Assembly (NCBI RefSeq): GCF_003334405.1
Contig: NZ_QOWM01000011.1
From: Escherichia coli
GTDB taxonomy: Bacteria; Pseudomonadota; Gammaproteobacteria; Enterobacterales; Enterobacteriaceae
Direction: 5' to 3' (one strand)
Length of the DNA stretch: 64,000 nucleotides
In this document: one piece after another, positions 55,178-63,462 of the stretch
Layout: each line of letters opens with the position of its first letter
Position numbering within the stretch: position 1 is the first letter of the stretch
Notes under the pieces: model-generated
The model's database searches: none
The model's input: the letters and a program-made list of their open reading frames with translations, nothing else
Told to the model about the DNA's origin: nothing
Program-made: the position numbers and the translations under genes

Positions 55178-55855
55178 TCAAAGCATAAACCGATAGCCAA
55201 TACCGGTTTCAGTAATGAAATGGCGTGGGCGGGCGGGATCCTGTTCCAGTTTTTGTCGCAGATGTCCCATATAAATACGCAAATAGTGACTGTGTTCGAC
55301 CGCGTTTGGCCCCCACACCTGGTTAAGGAGCTGGCGCTGGGTGAGTACTTTTCCGGCATTGTTGAGCAGCACCGCCAGCAGGCGGAACTCAATTGGTGTG
55401 AGATGCACCTCTTCCTCACCCCGGTGAATCACGCGGGCGGCTAAATCGACGGTAACATCGGAAAATTTTACCAGCGGATCGGGCGCGGTGGTGGCAGAGT
55501 GGCGGCGTAATGCGACGCGCAGACGGGCCTGCAATTCGCCAATGCCAAACGGCTTACTCAGATAATCATCCGCTCCGGCATCCAGCGCGGCGATTTTGTC
55601 GCTCTCTTCGCTGCGTGCGGAAAGCACAATCACCGGCACCGCGCTCCACTGGCGCAGGTCGCGGATAAACTCAATCCCATCACCATCGGGCAGGCCGAGA
55701 TCGAGAATAATCAAATCTGGCTTACGGGTTGCCGCTTCCAGCAAGCCGCGTTGCAGCGTTTCGGCCTCAAAGACGCGCATCCCGTCGCCCTCCAGCGCCG
55801 TGCGCAGAAAGCGACGAATAGCCTGTTCATCTTCAACAATCAGAACGTTTGTCAC
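55178..55855 (-). CDS. kdpE: Response regulator KdpE (OmpR family)
   Basis: ORF track 225 aa; receiver domain ([17 protein letters not shown]) plus winged-helix domain. Confidence 0.95.
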   Translation of the reverse strand: MTNVLIVEDEQAIRRFLRTALEGDGMRVFEAETLQRGLLEAATRKPDLIILDLGLPDGDGIEFIRDLRQWSAVPVIVLSARSEESDKIAALDAGADDYLSKPFGIGELQARLRVALRRHSATTAPDPLVKFSDVTVDLAARVIHRGEEEVHLTPIEFRLLAVLLNNAGKVLTQRQLLNQVWGPNAVEHSHYLRIYMGHLRQKLEQDPARPRHFITETGIGYRFML

Positions 55856-58536
55856 ATATCCTCATGAAATTCTTCAAGTTCAGGGGCAGTTTGCTGGGGA
55901 AGTGTAACACGAAAACAGGCACCACCTTCCGGTCGGTTGAACGCGGTAATAGTGCCCCCGTGTACATCCACTATCGCCCGACAAATTGCCAGTCCAAGCC
56001 CTACCCCCGGTACTGCCGACTCTTTATTCCCGCGAGCAAACTTATCAAATATCGTCTGCTCCTGGCCTGGCGGAAGACCGGGGCCGTTATCCCAGACATC
56101 CAGTTGTAGATTTTCGCCCTCAACGTGGGCATCGATACCAATTTCGGCCTGCGCACCCGCATATTTCACCGCGTTCTCCAGCAGATTAATCAGCACCCGT
56201 TCAAAGAGTGGCCCGTCAACGTGGATTAAGGTCAGCGGTTCTGGCAGAGAAAGATTGATGGGCGACGATAAACCCGGTTCCAGCATTTGCAGCGCGCTGC
56301 CGACTACTTCTTCCAGCGTTAACCACTCTTTCTTCAAATTAAAGCCGCCGGACTGAATTCGCGCCATATCCAGTAGATTATTCACCAGTCGGGTAGTGTT
56401 CAGCACATGCTGACGGATCTCGCTGGCCTGGCGGGCGTGGGGTGATCCTTCGCTTGCCAGATCGAGCGTTAAGATTTCTGCCTGACCAAACAGCACCGTA
56501 AGCGGCGTGCGTAAATCATGCGAAAGCGCCGCCAGCAGGGCGTTGCGGATCTGTTCACGTTCGCTTGCCATCCGCGCCTGTTCTTCGCTGGCGGTTAACG
56601 TCAGCCGCTCAAGGGCATTGGCGACTAACAGCGTAAACGTCTCCAGCAGGCGCTGCTGTTCCGGGATCATCAACTGGCGCAGATTCCCCGGCTCCACCAC
56701 CACCAGCCCGTAGGTTTTCTCGCCGCTTTTTAGCGGCAAAATCTGGTACGGTACACCGGGTAACGTGTCGGTGCCCGCGCCCGCAGGCAGGCCTTTATCA
56801 AAACTCCACTGCGCGATGGCATCGTCCCACGGCGTCATTCCTTGCGGATGTGTTAACGGCTGCAATTTACCGTTGTCATCGGGCAACAACACCTGACTGC
56901 GGGCATGAAACGTGGAGGCAATAAATTGTTCGCTGGTGGCAGCGATATCCTGCGGACTGCGGCCCACCGCCAGAGCTTTCGACATTTCATATAAGTGCCG
57001 TGTGCGTTGCTCGCGGTAACGGGCTACCCGCGCCTGATAACGCACGCCAGCAGTAAGGTTCCCGATCACCAGCCCGACGGTTAACATCACCGCGAAGGTC
57101 AGCAGATATTGCACATCAGAGACGGCGAGCGTGCCGCGTGGGGCGATAAAAAAGAGATCGAAACTCACTACATTAATGACGGTGGCAACCACTGAAGGCC
57201 AGCGTCCATAAAATAGCGCCACCACCACCACGCCAAGCAGATACAGCATCACCAGGTTGGCGGCATCAAACGCCATCAGCCACTGCATGGCAATTAAGGT
57301 GATAACGGCGCATAACGCGGCGGCAACCACGCATCCCTGAATTTGTACACGCCACTTGTCTTTAAAAGAGCGGTTATCCGGCGCGTTGTTAATCGTGCGG
57401 GCGGGTGGTTCATCAAGCGCGACCAGCACCTGATCGAGATCGGGGGCGATGCGCGCCAGTCGGTCAGCAAACGTTTCCCGACGCCACCAGCGGCGCGAGG
57501 CCGGGCGACCGAGAATAATCTTGCCGAGATTATGTTCACGGGCATAACGCACTACCGCTTTCTCTTCCGCTGGATCAGAAAGTGTTGCCGTCTCCGCGCC
57601 CAGTTCCTGCGCCAGACGTAAGGCGCTGAGAATTGCCCGACGTTTTTTTTCCGGTAAGCGGTGCAGGGCAGGGGTTTCAACATACACCGCGTGCCAGACG
57701 CTACCCAGCCGTGACGCCAGCCGCGCCGCTGCGCGGACCAGTTTTTCGCTGCCGGTGTTATGGCCGATGCATAAAAGGATCGCGTCGCGCGTGTGCCACA
57801 CTTTCTCTTCGCCAGGATGCCCCCGCCAGGCGCGCATTTGCTCATCAACGCGATCGGCAGTACGGCGCAGTGCCAGTTCGCGCAGGGCGATCAGATTACC
57901 TTTGCGGAAAAAATGTTCAATGGCGCGCTCCGCCTGCCCGGCAATATAGACTTTGCCTTCTTTCAGCCGCTGGCGCAGATCGTCCGGGGGCAAGTCCACC
58001 AGCACCACGTCGTCGGCGGCATCGAAAAAAGGATCGGGCACGGTTTCCCGTACCTGAATTCCGGTGACGCCGCTGACCACATCATTCAGACTTTCCAGAT
58101 GCTGAACGTTGACGGTAGTGAAAACATCAATGCCAGCTTCCAGCAGTTCTTCGATATCCTGCCAGCGTTTGGGATGACGGGAACCTGGCGCATTACTGTG
58201 CGCCAGTTCGTCCATTAAGATCAGCGCCGGGCGGCGGGCGAGGGCGGCATCGAGATCAAACTCGCTGATATGCCGCCCACGGTACGCCTGGCGTTTTAAC
58301 GGCAGAACAGCCAGCCCTTCCAGCATGGCGGCGGTATCTTTTCGCCCGTGGGTTTCTACCACGCCAACCACAATATCCAGCCCTTGCGCCCGCAGTCGCT
58401 GGGCTTCTGCCAGCATCGCCCAGGTCTTCCCGACGCCTGCACAGGCACCGAAGAAAACTTTCAGCTTCCCCCGATGCGGCGCGGCAGTTTGTTCCAGCAG
58501 ACGATCGGGGTCGGGACGTAAGGGTTCGTTATTCAT
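55852..58536 (-). CDS. kdpD: Sensor histidine kinase KdpD
   Basis: ORF track 55852..58578; start placed at [16 protein letters not shown] (894 aa); histidine kinase and Usp-like domains. Confidence 0.93.
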
Positions 58537-59101
58537 CAAGTTTATCCAGCGCCAGATTGAGTTCAACAATGTTGACAACCGGCTGGCCGATATATTTCAC
58601 CAGCGGTTGTTGGCTGTATTTTGCGATCAGTTGCGTGAGCTGTTCAACGCTGAGATTACGCGCTTTCGCCACGCGTGGGATTTGCCAGGCCGCCGCTTGC
58701 GGGGTGATATTATTGTCCAGCCCGCTTGCCGATGCCGTCACCAGTTCAACCGGAACGCTCGCGCTGGCATCCGGGTTAGCGGCCCGTAATGCAGCAACGC
58801 GTGCGGCTATTAGTTTATCCAGCTCAGGGTTACTGACCGCCAGATTGCTCCCGCCAGAAGCCTGTGGATTATAGGGCATTTCTGCCGTTGCCGACGGGCG
58901 ACCATGAAAATAGCCGTTGCCGGTAAAATTCTGCCCGATTAATGCCGAACCGCGCACCGTATCACCTTCACGAATCAACGAACCATTGGCCTGCCAGGGA
59001 AACCACCATTGCCCCAGTACGGTGGTCAGCAGCGGGTAAACGCCGCCAGTAATCAATAACAGAAAGATAAATGTTGATAATGCCGGACGTAATCCACTCA
59101 T
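58529..59101 (-). CDS. kdpC: K+-transporting ATPase subunit KdpC
   Basis: ORF track 58529..59125; start placed at [15 protein letters not shown] (190 aa). Confidence 0.92.
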
Positions 59102-59109
59102 GGTAAACC

Positions 59110-61158
59110 TCACACCAGACCGCAAACGGTCAGCAGTAAATCAATGACTTTGATACCGATAAACGGCACCAGCAGCCCACCCAGACCGTAAATCCATAAG
59201 TTACGGCGCAACATGGCAGAAGCGGTAAGCGGTTTATAACTCACGCCTTTTAACGCCAGGGGAATCAAAAAGACGATAATCAAGGCGTTGAAAATCACCG
59301 CACTGAGGATTGCGGAGTCGGGCGAATGCAGGCACATGATGTTCAGCGCATTTAACTGCGGATACGTTGCCGCGAATGCCGCCGGAATAATGGCGAAGTA
59401 TTTCGCCACATCGTTGGCAATGCTGAAGGTGGTCAGCGAGCCACGGGTCATCAGCATCTGTTTGCCAATGTGCACCACCTCGATCAACTTGGTCGGGTTA
59501 GAGTCGAGATCGACCATATTGCCCGCCTCTTTCGCCGCCTGGGTGCCGGAGTTCATCGCCACCGCGACATCTGCCTGCGCCAGCGCCGGAGCATCGTTGG
59601 TGCCGTCGCCGGTCATCGCTACCAAACGACCTTCCGCCTGATACTGACGGATCAATGCCAGCTTGGCCTCCGGTGTCGCTTCGGCGAGAAAATCATCGAC
59701 ACCCGCTTCCGCAGCAATCGCGGCGGCAGTCAGACGGTTATCGCCGGTAATCATCACCGTTTTAATGCCCATTTTGCGCAGCTGGGCGAAGCGCTCTTTA
59801 ATACCGCCTTTGACGATATCTTTCAGCGCAATAACGCCCAGCACACGAGAACCTTCCACCACCACCAGCGGCGTGGCTCCCTGACGCGCAACCTGATCGA
59901 CTTTTTGATCAACATCGGTAGGGAAGTGACCACCGTTAGCCTCAACATGGCGACGAATGGCATCGACAGAACCTTTACGGATCATGCGGTTGTCGATGTT
60001 GATCCCGCTCATCCGGCTTTGCGCAGTAAACGGTACAAAGGTGGCATGGAGCGACTGCACATCGCGCTCGCGCAGGTTAAAACGCTGCTTGGCGAGGATC
60101 ACAATACTGCGGCCTTCCGGCGTTTCATCAGCCAGCGAAGCCAGTTGTGCGGCGTCAGCCAGCGTTTTTTCATCCACGCCCTGCGCGGGGATAAACTCCG
60201 ACGCCTGACGGTTACCGAGTGTGATGGTGCCGGTTTTATCCAGTAGCAGAACGTCAACGTCACCTGCCGCTTCAACTGCACGTCCGCTGGTGGCAATCAC
60301 ATTCGCGCCTAGCATCCGGCTCATCCCGGCGACGCCGATCGCTGACAACAGGCCGCCAATAGTGGTTGGGATCAGACAGACCAGCAGCGCCACCAGTACC
60401 GTTACGCTGACTGCATTACCGCCCCACGCGGAAAACGGCCACAGCGTGGCGGTTGCCAGTAAAAAGACGATAGTCAGGGCAATCAGCAGAATGGTCAGGG
60501 CAATTTCGTTCGGCGTTTTGCGTCGCTGTGCGCCTTCCACCATCGCGATCATCCGATCCAGAAATGTCTCGCCGGGGTTAACGCTACACTCAATCACCAG
60601 CCAGTCAGAAAGAATACGCGTGCCGCCGGTGACGGAGGCAAAATCGCCGCCGGATTCACGGATCACCGGTGCCGATTCCCCGGTGATGGCGCTTTCATCG
60701 ACCGATGCACCCCCTTCAATAACTTCACCATCGCAGGGGATAATATCGCCAGCTTCTACCAGTACGATATCGCCTTTACGAAGTTGGTCGGCAGGAACTT
60801 TGTCCGCCGCAGCGCCATATTTCGGCTCACGCAGCTTGCGGGCAAAGGCAGTTTTTTTCACCCCTTTCAGACTGTTGGCCTGCGCTTTACTGCGGCCTTC
60901 TGCCAGCGCCTCGGCGAAATTAGCGAACAGTACGGTGATCCACAGCCAACCGCTAATGGCCGCGCTAAACAGCGCATTGCCGGGCATCGCACCGCTTGCC
61001 ATCGCGATGCTAATACAGGTGGTCAGCAGACTGCCGATCCAGACGATAAACATCACCGGATTGCGCCATTGCGCCTGCGGGTTTAATTTTTTCACCGCTT
61101 CTTTCAGCGCCTGAACGACAAGTGTTGGTTCGAATAGCGCCAGTTGTTTACGACTCAT
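59110..61158 (-). CDS. kdpB: K+-transporting P-type ATPase catalytic subunit KdpB
   Basis: ORF track 682 aa; P-type ATPase motifs DKTGTIT and TGDN. Confidence 0.95.
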
Positions 61159-61180: not shown

Positions 61181-62854
61181 TCAGGAGAGATATTCCGCCA
61201 CCGGACCAAGCGCCAGGGCAGGGATAAAGGTCAGTGCGCCAACCAGCAACACGGTGCCGATTAACAGGCCAACAAACAGCGGGCCGTGCGTTGGCAGCGT
61301 GCCGGAGCTGGCGGCTTGGCTCTTTTTACTCACCAGCGAACCGGCAATTGCCATCACCGGGATAATCACCCCGAAGCGACCGACAAACATGCAGAACGCC
61401 AGTAAACAGTTCCAGAACGGAGAGTTGGCGCTTAATCCGGCAAAGGCGCTGCCGTTGTTGTTAGCGGCGGATGACACGGCGTACAGCACTTCGCTAAAAC
61501 CATGCGGGCCAGGGTTGAGCATGGCGCTACGTCCGGCGTCGGTCATCATCGCCAACGCCGCGCCCATCAGCACCAGCGTCGGGGTAACCAGAATTGCCAG
61601 TGCAGTCAGTTTCATCTCGCGTACGTCGATTTTTTTACCCAGATATTCCGGTGTACGACCAATCATCAGCCCGGCAATAAACACCGCCAGCAGGACAAAC
61701 AGCATCATGCCGTAAAGACCAGAACCGACACCGCCGAACACCACTTCACCAATTTGCATCAGCCACATCGGCACCATGCCACCGAGAGCGGTAAACGAAT
61801 CATGCATCGCAATCACCGCGCCACAGGAAGCCGCCGTCGTCACGACCGCAAACAGGCTACTGACCAGCACGCCGAAACGGCTCTCTTTACCTTCCATATT
61901 GATGCTGCTGTCCGTGCCCAGTGCCAGCAGATGAGGATTACCCTGAACTTCTGCCCACATCACCACGCCTACGCAGATGACAAAAATCACTGACATCGCC
62001 CACAGCAACATGCGCCCCTGGCGGCGATCGCCCGTCACTTCACCAAAGGCAAAGCACAGCGCCGTTGGGATCAAGAAGATCGCCAGCATCTGCACGAAGT
62101 TGGTCAGTGCGGTTGGGTTTTCAAACGGATGCGACGAGTTGGCATTAAAGAAGCCACCGCCGTTAGTACCGAGCATCTTGATCGCTTCCTGAGAAGCTAC
62201 AGGCCCCATGGGTAACAGCTGTTGCGCTCCTTCAACGGTATTCACAGCCTGATAAGGCAGAAAGTTTTGCAGCGCACCTTGTTGAATAAAAAACAGTGCA
62301 ATCAACAACGCCACAGGGACTAGCACCCATAACGTGATGCGTAGCAGATCGACCCAGGCATTCCCGAGCGTGCTCATGCTCTGGCGGGTAAACGCACGGA
62401 TGAGGGCAAAAATCACCGCAATCCCGCTGGCGGCAGAAAGAAAGTTTTGCACCGTTAAGCCCGCCATCTGGCTGAAATAGCTCAACGTGGTTTCACCGCT
62501 ATAAGATTGCCAGTTGGTATTGGTGACAAAGCTGACGGCGGTATTCAGCGCCAGATCCCACGACAGCCCTGGCAACTGCTGTGGATTAAGCGGCAGATAG
62601 TGCTGACCGAGCAACATAAAAAACAGCACCGCCAGCCCCAGCATGTTCAGGCCGAGAATGGCACAAAGATATTGCTTCCAGTTCATCTCACGGTCAGAGA
62701 CGCCAAGTGCGCGAAAAAGTACGCGCTCAACGCCCGTTGTACCGGGAAGAGGAATGTCATTAATCAGCCGCGCCAGCCCGCTGCCTAAAGGACGCGCCAG
62801 CACCATTAACACCAGTAAAAACGTGGCGATCAGTAAGAACCCTTGCGCAGCCAT
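61181..62854 (-). CDS. kdpA: K+-transporting ATPase channel subunit KdpA
   Basis: ORF track 61181..62998; start placed at [16 protein letters not shown] (557 aa); start codon overlaps the kdpF stop by 1 nt. Confidence 0.93.
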
Positions 62855-62943
62855 CAGAACGCCTCCGCATTGATCAGGGCATAAACCAGATAACCCAGTA
62901 ATAAAAACACCAGCAATACGCCGGTTATCACGCCTGCACTCAC
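62854..62943 (-). CDS. kdpF: KdpF small membrane peptide (29 aa, GTG start)
   Basis: Last 29 codons of ORF 62854..63057: [29 protein letters not shown] with GTG (cac at 62941-62943) as initiator. Confidence 0.75.
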
Positions 62944-63016
62944 AGTGCACCTCCAGTGGCCTAAAAGTGATACCGGAAGGGTAGAATTCTGGCTGCAAAG
63001 ATTTCGCAAAAATCTG

Positions 63017-63047
63017 CGGGCGGGGTGTAAAAAAAGTATAAAAATGG
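63017..63047 (-). promoter_or_regulatory. KdpE-binding site of the kdpFABC promoter
   Basis: Revcomp reads CCATTTTTATACTTTTTTTACACCCCGCCCG, matching the KdpE operator as I recall it; about 75 bp upstream of the kdpF start. Confidence 0.5.
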
Positions 63048-63255
63048 CAAAAGCCATGATTTAACTAATGTTTAGTATTAATTTAACTTTTGTGTAACTT
63101 AATTACAGGATGAATGTAAATAAACCATCAATAAGCAAAAATAAGTGGTCGGATGAGTAGTAAAATTACACAAAAGGCGGTACTATTTTCATCAGATAAA
63201 CAAATTCATTTTTCCGGTGCCATTCACCGGGTAGATACAAAAGGGGGAGAAAAGT

Positions 63256-63462
63256 ATGGAACTCTACAGAGAATATCCTGCATGGCTTATCTTTTTACGC
63301 CGTACTTATGCGGTTGCAGCGGGCGTTCTGGCGCTGCCTTTCATGCTTTTCTGGAAAGACCGCGCCCGCTTTTACAGCTACCTGCATCGCGTCTGGTCGA
63401 AAACCAGCGATAAACCGGTGTGGATGGATCAGGCCGAAAAGGCAACTGGTGATTTTTATTGA
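63256..63462 (+). CDS. ybfA: Small protein YbfA (DUF2517), hydrophobic central segment
   Basis: ORF track 68 aa [40 protein letters not shown]... Confidence 0.85.

Follow-up and report, generated by a model that had tools for sequence, protein, structure and literature searches.

Sequence evidence for a GTG-initiated kdpF and an upstream KdpE activator site at the 5' end of an Escherichia coli kdpFABC-kdpDE cluster

On a stretch of Escherichia coli DNA that carries kdp genes, where does translation of kdpF begin, and is the T-rich sequence upstream of it the site to which KdpE binds? The DNA comes from assembly GCF_003334405.1 (contig NZ_QOWM01000011.1). The whole stretch analyzed, 64,000 nt, is referred to here as the window, and the kdp feature lies on its minus strand. 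On the evidence presented below, the locus is almost certainly the 5' end of the E. coli kdpFABC-kdpDE cluster, with a GTG-initiated kdpF and a KdpE activator site, and nothing substantive counts against this reading of kdpF and the KdpE site. The kdp locus is well characterized, and the biology is textbook material that was already known.

Results

An intact six-gene cluster

The window contains the following kdp genes.

62943..62854, minus strand: kdpF, 29 codons, GTG start at 62943..62941, TGA stop at 62856..62854
61181..62854, minus strand: kdpA, 557 amino acids, ATG at 62854..62852; full-length match to TIGR00680 (1006.6 bits)
59110-61158, minus strand: kdpB, full-length equivalog match above cut-off
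58529-59101, minus strand: kdpC, full-length equivalog match above cut-off
55852-58536, minus strand: kdpD, overlapping kdpC by 8 nt; full-length match to NF007793 (1837.8 bits)
55178-55855, minus strand: kdpE, GTG start, GTGA overlap with the kdpD stop; full-length match to NF007820 (487.6 bits)

The original prediction described the operon as complete (kdpFABCDE), and we agree. All six genes are intact and in order, each with one terminal stop and without frameshifts or internal stops, and all six match curated family models over their full length, KdpA through KdpE at the equivalog level. The RefSeq record gives an identical gene layout. kdpF lies directly upstream of kdpA in the same orientation, and the cognate pair KdpD/KdpE, both full-length equivalogs, is encoded downstream of kdpFABC. 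Solved structures of KdpE are PDB 4kfc and 4kny.

As subunit F of the P-type K+ pump KdpFABC, the product of kdpF is a membrane peptide with a single helix. Over its whole length (residues 1-29 of 29) it matches the NCBIfam equivalog NF011332, scoring 76.7 bits against a cut-off of 56, and the match to TIGR02115 scores 34 bits (cut-off 26.85). With Met at position 1, the peptide is identical to the 29-residue chain in 14 PDB entries (6hra_D, 6hrb, 7bgy, and others), and a 27-amino-acid version of the chain is present in 11 further entries. The five E. coli RefSeq records inspected all annotate kdpF over these 90 nt and show its one-nucleotide overlap with kdpA; of 5426 complete E. coli genomes, 5424 contain the region. 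Compared with kdpF of E. coli K-12 (NF011332, TIGR02115; PDB 5mrw, 6hra), the window shows the same 29-residue sequence, GTG start, TGATG overlap, and position between ybfA and kdpA; we found no difference, and this is the same gene.

kdpF is predicted to start at GTG 62943

A 29-codon kdpF initiated at GTG had been proposed for this locus, and the translation of 62943..62854, NF011332, the PDB chains, and RefSeq all agree with it. It had also been proposed that callers restricted to ATG would go wrong here, and they do: the open reading frame list gives a 67-amino-acid frame from ATG 63057, with the promoter and KdpE site inside it. Could this longer frame be the true gene, with GTG 62943 an internal valine codon? 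It is what a caller that takes the first start or prefers ATG would list, and there is a precedent for an overlong frame in Mycobacterium smegmatis MSMEG_5391 before its correction (PMC5401905). However, its N-terminal extension would be encoded by the very DNA that holds the KdpE site and promoter, only residues 40-67 of the 67-amino-acid form align with the family model, and the KdpF chains in the PDB are 29 amino acids long.

Comparison with other genomes bears on the same question. Our conservation sample comprised 14 loci, nine of them from outside E. coli; ten loci, representing three Enterobacterales families, came from a plasmid collection. The original prediction had asked whether kdpF homologues initiate elsewhere. 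The start position was conserved in all nine non-E. coli loci, as GTG in seven and as ATG in two (Providencia and Proteus). GTG is the homologous codon in Enterobacter, the Raoultella and Pluralibacter plasmids, K. aerogenes, Klebsiella pneumoniae (both the chromosome and pKlebA1), Duffyella, and Arsenophonus. The alternation of GTG and ATG across genera marks this codon as a true start, and because Providencia and Proteus have ATG there, it cannot be an internal valine. The upstream ATG at 63057, in contrast, is replaced by ATA in E. coli AREA_R485, and the 67-codon extension is broken by stops or lacks a start in Raoultella, pKlebA1, Duffyella, and Providencia. No start codon of any kind was found in the open frame upstream of the kdpF GTG in Raoultella/Pluralibacter, K. 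aerogenes, and pKlebA1. Across loci, codon position 3 of kdpF carried the most substitutions and position 2 the fewest. Taken together, the extension, homologue, and PDB evidence effectively refutes the 67-codon gene, to which we assign a negligible probability.

The remaining alternative is a start within kdpF, where several in-frame GTG and TTG triplets, among them codons 5 (62931), 10, and 12, might serve as starts for a shorter peptide. The ribosome-binding sequence is informative here.

62950..62954, minus strand: Shine-Dalgarno sequence GGAGG of kdpF, 6 nt before the GTG

The distance from this GGAGG is 6 nt to GTG 62943 and 18 nt to GTG 62931, and the internal candidates have no Shine-Dalgarno sequence at a workable distance. 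Nor are the internal GTG and TTG codons kept as start codons in other genera, and the matches to the NCBIfam equivalog and to the PDB chains extend over the full 29 residues. We therefore rejected the internal starts, which are highly unlikely on these three counts. The Shine-Dalgarno sequence itself reads GGAGG in most Enterobacteriaceae loci and GGAG or GGA in the remainder. These data support initiation of kdpF at GTG 62943, as predicted for the present strain.

The kdpF stop overlaps the kdpA start

As originally noted, the stop of kdpF and the start of kdpA share one nucleotide: TGA (62856..62854) and ATG (62854..62852) overlap at A62854 to give TGATG at 62856..62852. A second GGAGG lies just upstream of this overlap.

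62862..62866, minus strand: putative Shine-Dalgarno sequence GGAGG of kdpA, 7 nt before the kdpA ATG and within Ala-Glu codons (GCG GAG G) at the KdpF C terminus

The TGATG overlap was kept in all Enterobacteriaceae loci and in Duffyella, and GCGGAG near the end of kdpF was kept in 13 of the 14 loci, although synonymous alternatives exist. Because of the UGAUG overlap and the second GGAGG inside the last kdpF codons, translation of kdpA is most likely coupled to that of kdpF.

The upstream 31-mer contains the published KdpE-binding DNA

We then asked about the sequence upstream of kdpF, which the original prediction had described as a KdpE operator.

63047..63017, minus strand: 31-mer CCATTTTTATACTTTTTTTACACCCCGCCCG, the published 30-bp KdpE-binding DNA plus one extra 5' C
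63046..63017, minus strand: published 30-bp kdpFABC_BS CATTTTTATACTTTTTTTACACCCCGCCCG, 30 of 30 bases identical
63042..63037, minus strand: KdpE half-site S1, TTTATA, conserved at 6/6 in the corresponding place in 13 of the 14 loci
63031..63026, minus strand: KdpE half-site S2, TTTACA, 11 bp downstream of S1 with a 5-bp T-rich spacer

Compared with the published site (PMC3264566), the window sequence shows no difference: it matches kdpFABC_BS in all 30 bp, the half-sites, the 5-bp spacer, and the position upstream of the promoter, and the extra 5' C is the only respect in which the 31-mer departs from it. The 31-mer was found exactly once in the window, with none expected from 100 shuffles. 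The KdpE box proper, TTTATA-CTTTT-TTTACA at 63042..63026 on the minus strand, consists of two TTTAYA direct repeats separated by a 5-bp AT-rich spacer. The 30-mer includes the DNase I footprint from -72 to -50, with half-sites TTTATA and TTTACA (PMC3264566, where Sugiura et al. 1992 is cited for the KdpE footprint), and the half-sites are numbered -67 to -62 and -56 to -51 (bioRxiv 10.1101/256826). By the published numbering, the 23-bp footprint corresponds to approximately 63047..63025. About 21 bp around both half-sites form the minimal KdpE site, and the GC-rich 3' third is dispensable for binding (PMC3264566); in our comparison, the GC-rich 3' part of the 31-mer was variable even between E. 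coli strains. The claim of a KdpE site thus stands, and only the word "operator" is loose, since KdpE is a transcriptional activator.

Might the 31-mer be no specific site at all, only generic AT-rich curved DNA resembling an UP element? The region is T-rich, and two more T tracts in phase with each other, TTTGCG at 63010..63005 and TTTGCA at 62999..62994, follow downstream. With one mismatch allowed, TTTATA-N5-TTTACA has its sole match in the 64 kb, on both strands, at this position, against an expectation of 0.14, and shuffled sequence gave at least one match in 14 of 100 trials. However, the 31-mer includes DNA identical to that used in published footprinting, electrophoretic mobility shift, and ultracentrifugation work, in which dinucleotide changes in the TTTA cores abolished binding (PMC3264566). 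Genomic SELEX, moreover, gave a single KdpE peak, in the spacer between kdpF and ybfA (PMC5934670). The half-site hexamers were also kept at 11 to 12 of 12 positions across families, whereas the flanking bases drift. The box lies 94 to 103 nt upstream of the kdpF start in 13 of 14 loci (8 of the 9 from outside E. coli); the exception is the K. pneumoniae chromosome CP125156, in which the S1 hexamer is intact and the spacer between S1 and S2 is one T shorter. S2 reads TTTACA or TTTATA in all genera examined. We accordingly give almost no credence to generic curved DNA as the explanation. Identification of the 31-mer region as the KdpE site is supported, with binding and activation taken from the literature cited.

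A putative promoter and a short leader

Between the KdpE box and kdpF lies a candidate core promoter.

62978..63009, minus strand: putative core promoter region, with TTGCGA at 63009..63004 (-35-like) and TACCCT at 62983..62978 (TAnnnT, -10-like)

From their sequence and position, we infer that TTGCGA and TACCCT, which are 20 nt apart, may serve as the -35 and -10 hexamers. In E. coli and Providencia, the -10-like hexamer stands a fixed 42 nt beyond S2, and the spacing is similar elsewhere. By the published numbering, +1 falls near 62975, and a start set by the conserved TAnnnT hexamer would lie some 4 nt downstream, at about 62971; our literature search returned no independent source for the kdpFABC transcription start. 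A scan of 62800..63300 found no canonical sigma-70 consensus, as is expected of an activator-dependent promoter, although this is not positive evidence for one. Two terminator-like matches, one inside kdpF and one on the KdpE site, were taken as chance. There was no Rfam match on either strand of 62800..63300 (E<=1), and hence no known riboswitch or small RNA in the leader or spacer. The predicted RNA fold of the leader and kdpF (62975..62840) resembled that of shuffled sequences (z = -0.98), with no sign of a structured leader.

Conserved blocks in the ybfA-kdpF spacer

Three further sequences were seen in the ybfA-kdpF spacer: a 27-nt block at about 63144..63170 that is invariant from E. coli to Klebsiella, a conserved GTAA-N5-TTAC palindrome at about 63086..63100, and a second KdpE-like box at about 63115..63131 that is perfect in Klebsiella and matches at 10 of 12 positions in E. 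coli. The plus-strand open reading frame that starts at ATG 63153 (MSSKIT...) within the invariant block is unlikely to be coding; its length changes from 86 codons in E. coli to 12 in Enterobacter and 18 in K. pneumoniae. That the spacer holds regulatory elements beyond the KdpE box is a tentative idea that we consider unlikely. If true, such elements could amount to an undescribed input, perhaps one acting on the divergent ybfA, through KdpE or otherwise, or to an extra layer of kdp regulation.

Discussion

How would these elements act together? Under K+ limitation, the sensor kinase KdpD would phosphorylate KdpE, a response regulator of the OmpR/PhoB type. A KdpE dimer would then bind head to tail to the direct repeats TTTATA and TTTACA, 11 bp apart and, by the published numbering, centered about 61 bp before the transcription start, and activate an otherwise weak sigma-70 promoter. 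The mRNA would carry a leader of about 30 nt, in which GGAGG 6 nt before the GTG would direct initiation of the 29-residue KdpF subunit of the KdpFABC pump, and the UGAUG overlap together with the embedded second GGAGG would most likely couple translation of kdpA to that of kdpF.

The arrangement can be set beside better-known relatives. Like the pho boxes of PhoB and the F and C boxes of OmpR, the KdpE box consists of direct repeats about one helical turn apart that are bound head to tail by winged-helix domains (PMC3264566). The pho box replaces the -35 element, whereas the KdpE box lies further upstream (about -72 to -50 by the published numbering), and KdpE appears to have one target, the kdpF/ybfA spacer (PMC5934670). 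The kdpF of M. smegmatis is likewise short, with a GTG start and an overlap with the start of kdpA, and was once misannotated as longer (PMC5401905). It differs in having a 120-nt leader, a SigF-type promoter, and another KdpE site, and the relation is distant (PMC5401905).

The finding of kdpF and its KdpE site brings no new biology in itself and matters as a control only. Use as an annotation sanity check, as originally suggested, is the sole usefulness of the locus. Three feature tables, those for K. aerogenes LR134125, Duffyella, and Arsenophonus, lack kdpF, although the two PLSDB tables among these may be incomplete. A gene of 29 codons, a start other than ATG, a stop and a start that share one base, and a misleading longer ATG frame come together at the 5' end of kdpFABC and make it a compact test case for annotation pipelines.

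Identity of the kdp cluster

Read on the minus strand, as the reverse complement of 63270..62780, the region presents from 5' to 3' the 31-mer CCATTTTTATACTTTTTTTACACCCCGCCCG, a GGAGG, a GTG and a 29-codon frame. The kdpF stop and the kdpA start share one nucleotide (A62854), reading TGATG, and kdpA then runs for 557 codons from its ATG at 62854 to 61181. The coordinates, peptide, start codon, overlap and upstream string of the original prediction were each correct; all that its description omitted was the strand, which is minus.

Features of the kdp cluster and its upstream region
63047..63017, minus strand: 31-mer CCATTTTTATACTTTTTTTACACCCCGCCCG with the KdpE site (sequence reading)
63042..63037, minus strand: half-site S1, match to published TTTATA
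63031..63026, minus strand: half-site S2, match to published TTTACA
62983..62978, minus strand: conserved TAnnnT hexamer TACCCT (cross-genus alignments)
62954..62950, minus strand: GGAGG, six bases ahead of the kdpF GTG
62943..62941, minus strand: kdpF GTG start codon (sequence reading)
62854-62943, minus strand: kdpF, GTG start; intact, single terminal stop
62856..62854, minus strand: kdpF TGA stop, closing the 29-codon frame
61181-62854, minus strand: kdpA, sharing one base with the kdpF stop; intact, single terminal stop
59110-61158, minus strand: kdpB; intact, single terminal stop
58529-59101, minus strand: kdpC; intact, single terminal stop
55852-58536, minus strand: kdpD, overlapping kdpC by 8 nt (58529..58536); intact, single terminal stop
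55178-55855, minus strand: kdpE, GTG start, overlapping the kdpD stop as GTGA (55852..55855); intact, single terminal stop

The operon is complete (kdpFABCDE), as had been claimed: all six genes are intact, and KdpA, B, C, D and E match their NCBIfam equivalogs at full length, far over the curated cut-offs. A second non-ATG, overlapping start in the cluster, that of kdpE, had gone unmentioned; RefSeq agrees with it.

When complete E. coli genomes were surveyed with a 601-nt query spanning the region, 5424 of 5426 matched at 95-100% identity, and the annotation at the matches was always ybfA, kdpF, kdpA. A RefSeq record identical over the query annotates kdpF as exactly the 90 nt equivalent to 62943..62854, in agreement with the proposed boundaries, and begins kdpA on the last base of kdpF. 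Its neighbors are kdpB, kdpC, kdpD, kdpE and then speFL/speF downstream, and ybfA and rhsC upstream. Three further E. coli records that diverge more (96-97% identity) keep both boundaries unchanged. Apart from the exact placement of the KdpE box relative to the transcription start, all the defining features open to testing were present. The locus is the already known kdp cluster of E. coli, with nothing new in the finding itself; it is good for the annotation sanity check suggested for it, and nothing more.

The start of kdpF

Five independent lines of evidence identify the GTG at 62943 as the true kdpF start. The 29-position NCBIfam equivalog NF011332 aligns with kdpF from 1-29 on 1-29 (76.7 bits; cut-off, 56), whereas in the 67-aa ATG-extended form residues 40-67 alone align. 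That extended form, running through the promoter, is what a mechanical ORF list gives, which makes the warning about ATG-only callers a fair one. In 14 KdpFABC PDB entries (6hra, 6hrb, 7bgy and others), the KdpF chain has 29 residues and is identical except for the initiator Met.

We also compared ten kdpA-containing loci from a plasmid collection, some of which are in fact chromosomes or chromids. The counterpart of the codon at 62943 is GTG in Enterobacter hormaechei, the plasmids of Raoultella and Pluralibacter, Klebsiella pneumoniae (both chromosome and pKlebA1), K. aerogenes, Duffyella and Arsenophonus, and ATG in Providencia, where it is the sole start of that frame. This exchange of GTG and ATG at one position marks a start codon rather than a valine codon. 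In Proteus, an ATG lies two codons further in. The frame is open without another start codon upstream of the GTG in Raoultella/Pluralibacter, K. aerogenes and pKlebA1, and in E. coli AREA_R485 the upstream in-frame ATG (window 63057) is replaced by ATA. A GGAG-type Shine-Dalgarno sequence stands 5-7 nt ahead of the start in nearly all loci. Differences from E. coli kdpF fall least often on the second codon position and most often on the third (positions 1/2/3: Raoultella, 5/2/10; K. aerogenes, 7/3/9). The cross-genus comparison did not bear out the objection set beforehand, that kdpF homologs initiate elsewhere.

The feature tables of K. aerogenes LR134125 (L009), Duffyella (L010) and Arsenophonus (L013) lack kdpF, although the DNA carries it intact. 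The three records illustrate in practice how kdpF is overlooked, though the evidence is weaker because PLSDB tables can be incomplete. In LR134125, kdpA is split into two coding sequences, suggesting a frameshift or an assembly error. The annotation history has a parallel in Mycobacterium smegmatis, whose GTG-initiated kdpF, also overlapping kdpA, was annotated as a longer ORF until experimental correction (PMC5401905).

From the sequence, we infer that kdpA is translationally coupled to kdpF. A GGAGG at 62866..62862, 7 nt ahead of the kdpA ATG, arises from the codons for Ala-Glu in the conserved C terminus of KdpF. Despite available synonyms, 13 of the 14 loci use GCG GAG for these two residues, which suggests a dual constraint, on peptide and on ribosome-binding site. 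The overlap reads TGATG in every Enterobacteriaceae and Duffyella locus; the Morganellaceae junction is looser (TGAtATG, TAAATG or TAAaaATG).

The KdpE box

The 30-bp KdpE-binding DNA of Narayanan et al. (PLoS One 2012) is CATTTTTATACTTTTTTTACACCCCGCCCG and takes in the 23-bp region (-72 to -50) that Sugiura et al. footprinted with DNase I (PMC3264566). The 31-mer equals this 30-mer plus one additional 5' C, so the string in the original prediction is the published site. The term "operator" is loose, since KdpE is an activator. The direct repeats S1 (TTTATA) and S2 (TTTACA), each 6 bp long, lie 5 bp apart; a 21-bp fragment that extends 3 bp beyond S1 on the 5' side and 1 bp beyond S2 on the 3' side is enough for binding, and altered TTTA cores abolish it (PMC3264566). 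Tandem-repeat sites of the OmpR/PhoB family (PhoB, OmpR) form the mechanistic class of this box, and the regulator encoded downstream is of the same family as KdpE of PDB 4kfc and 4kny.

The 31-mer occurs once in the window (zero expected by chance), and even when one mismatch is tolerated its degenerate core TTTATA-N5-TTTACA has no other match in 64 kb on both strands (0.14 expected). Genomic SELEX gave one KdpE peak in the whole E. coli genome, at the kdpF/ybfA spacer (PMC5934670). Our cross-locus comparison supports the published picture: 13 of 14 loci (Enterobacteriaceae, Erwiniaceae, Morganellaceae) have a box of 11-12/12 placed 94-103 nt ahead of the kdpF start. The GC-rich bases 3' of S2 differ already between E. 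coli strains (CCCCGCCCG, CCACGCCCG, CCCCGTCCG), which fits the published minimal site.

In K. pneumoniae CP125156, a 5.37-Mb record labeled "plasmid" and evidently a chromosome filed as such, the main box is TTTATACTTTTTTACA; its spacer is short by one T, it scores lower here, and the half-site period is 10 bp versus 11 bp. This spacing may be a genuine variant or may come from a homopolymer sequencing error.

The core promoter

According to the literature, KdpD autophosphorylates when K+ is limiting and KdpE becomes phosphorylated; bound in tandem to S1 and S2, phosphorylated KdpE activates the kdpFABC promoter. In the sequence, the leader that comes before the Shine-Dalgarno sequence and the GTG is about 30 nt long. 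The kdpF upstream region held no canonical sigma-70 consensus, consistent with a weak, activator-dependent promoter. The leader RNA fold was unremarkable (z = -0.98), and no Rfam family matched in the leader region.

The half-sites are numbered -67..-62 and -56..-51 (bioRxiv 10.1101/256826), placing +1 at about 62975 and giving a leader of about 32 nt. The TAnnnT hexamer TACCCT lies 20 nt from a conserved TTGCGA (63009..63004). It follows S2 at a constant 42 nt in both E. coli and Providencia, and elsewhere it reads TACCGT, TATCCT, TACACT or TAACCT. If the hexamer serves as the -10 element, transcription would begin near 62971, some 4 nt further downstream than the published numbering implies. 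Our literature search found no independent source for the kdpFABC transcription start. This tension of about 4 nt leaves the kdpF/KdpE finding unaffected.

Inside the core promoter are T-tract direct repeats, TTTGCG (63010..63005) and TTTGCA (62999..62994), on the minus strand. Because they are 11 nt apart and begin 21 nt after S2, this second pair shares the helical phase of the KdpE half-sites. The corresponding sequence in Morganellaceae is TTTATC-N5-TTTACA. The pair could provide intrinsic DNA curvature or extra weak KdpE contacts.

Plasmid-borne kdp loci

Three IncF-type plasmids, Raoultella sp. HC6 p2 (L006), Pluralibacter gergoviae pFB2.1 (L007) and K. pneumoniae pKlebA1 (L012), each carry a kdpF-kdpA start that looks complete and has its own KdpE box. 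In two of these cases a divergent TrkH-family K+ uptake gene adjoins kdp. Two different genera share one kdpF protein accession, so in these hosts the kdp system is carried by plasmids and is mobile.

Elements of the ybfA-kdpF spacer

A 27-nt block at 63144..63170 (plus strand, AGTGGTCGGATGAGTAGTAAAATTACA; minus strand, TGTAATTTTACTACTCATCCGACCACT) is invariant in alignments of E. coli, E. hormaechei, K. pneumoniae and K. aerogenes, where the flanking spacer drifts. It is present as one unannotated copy in 5419 E. coli genomes and had no match in Rfam. Lying just upstream of a -10-like TACTAT/TATTAT hexamer (63181..63186) directed toward ybfA, it is a possible promoter or regulator site for that gene. 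A plus-strand ATG ORF at 63153 is probably not coding, because its length varies (86, 12 and 18 codons). In the presumed ybfA 5' leader is a hairpin, CCGGTG-CCATT-CACCGG (63214..63230, plus strand), whose stem ends CCGG...CCGG are kept in Enterobacter and Klebsiella; inner stem and loop bases differ.

A GTAA-N5-TTAC palindrome at about 63086..63100 (minus strand, TGTAATTAAGTTACA) keeps its arms with a variable center in Enterobacter, K. pneumoniae and K. aerogenes, the pattern that would be expected for a dimeric transcription factor site. To our knowledge, no regulator has been assigned to it. About 90 nt upstream of the known KdpE box lies a second KdpE-like box (about 63115..63131, minus strand; 176-192 in CP125156 [L008], 170-186 in L009). 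It is perfect, at 12/12 (TTTATACTTAATTTACA), in K. pneumoniae and K. aerogenes and degenerate in E. coli, at 10/12 (TTGATGGTTTATTTACA), where the first half-site has lost its critical TTTA core (TTGA in S1); its S2-like ATTTACATTC is invariant in 5 of 6 aligned sequences. These spacer elements, together with the second T-tract pair, are the only place in this well-known locus where undescribed features might remain.
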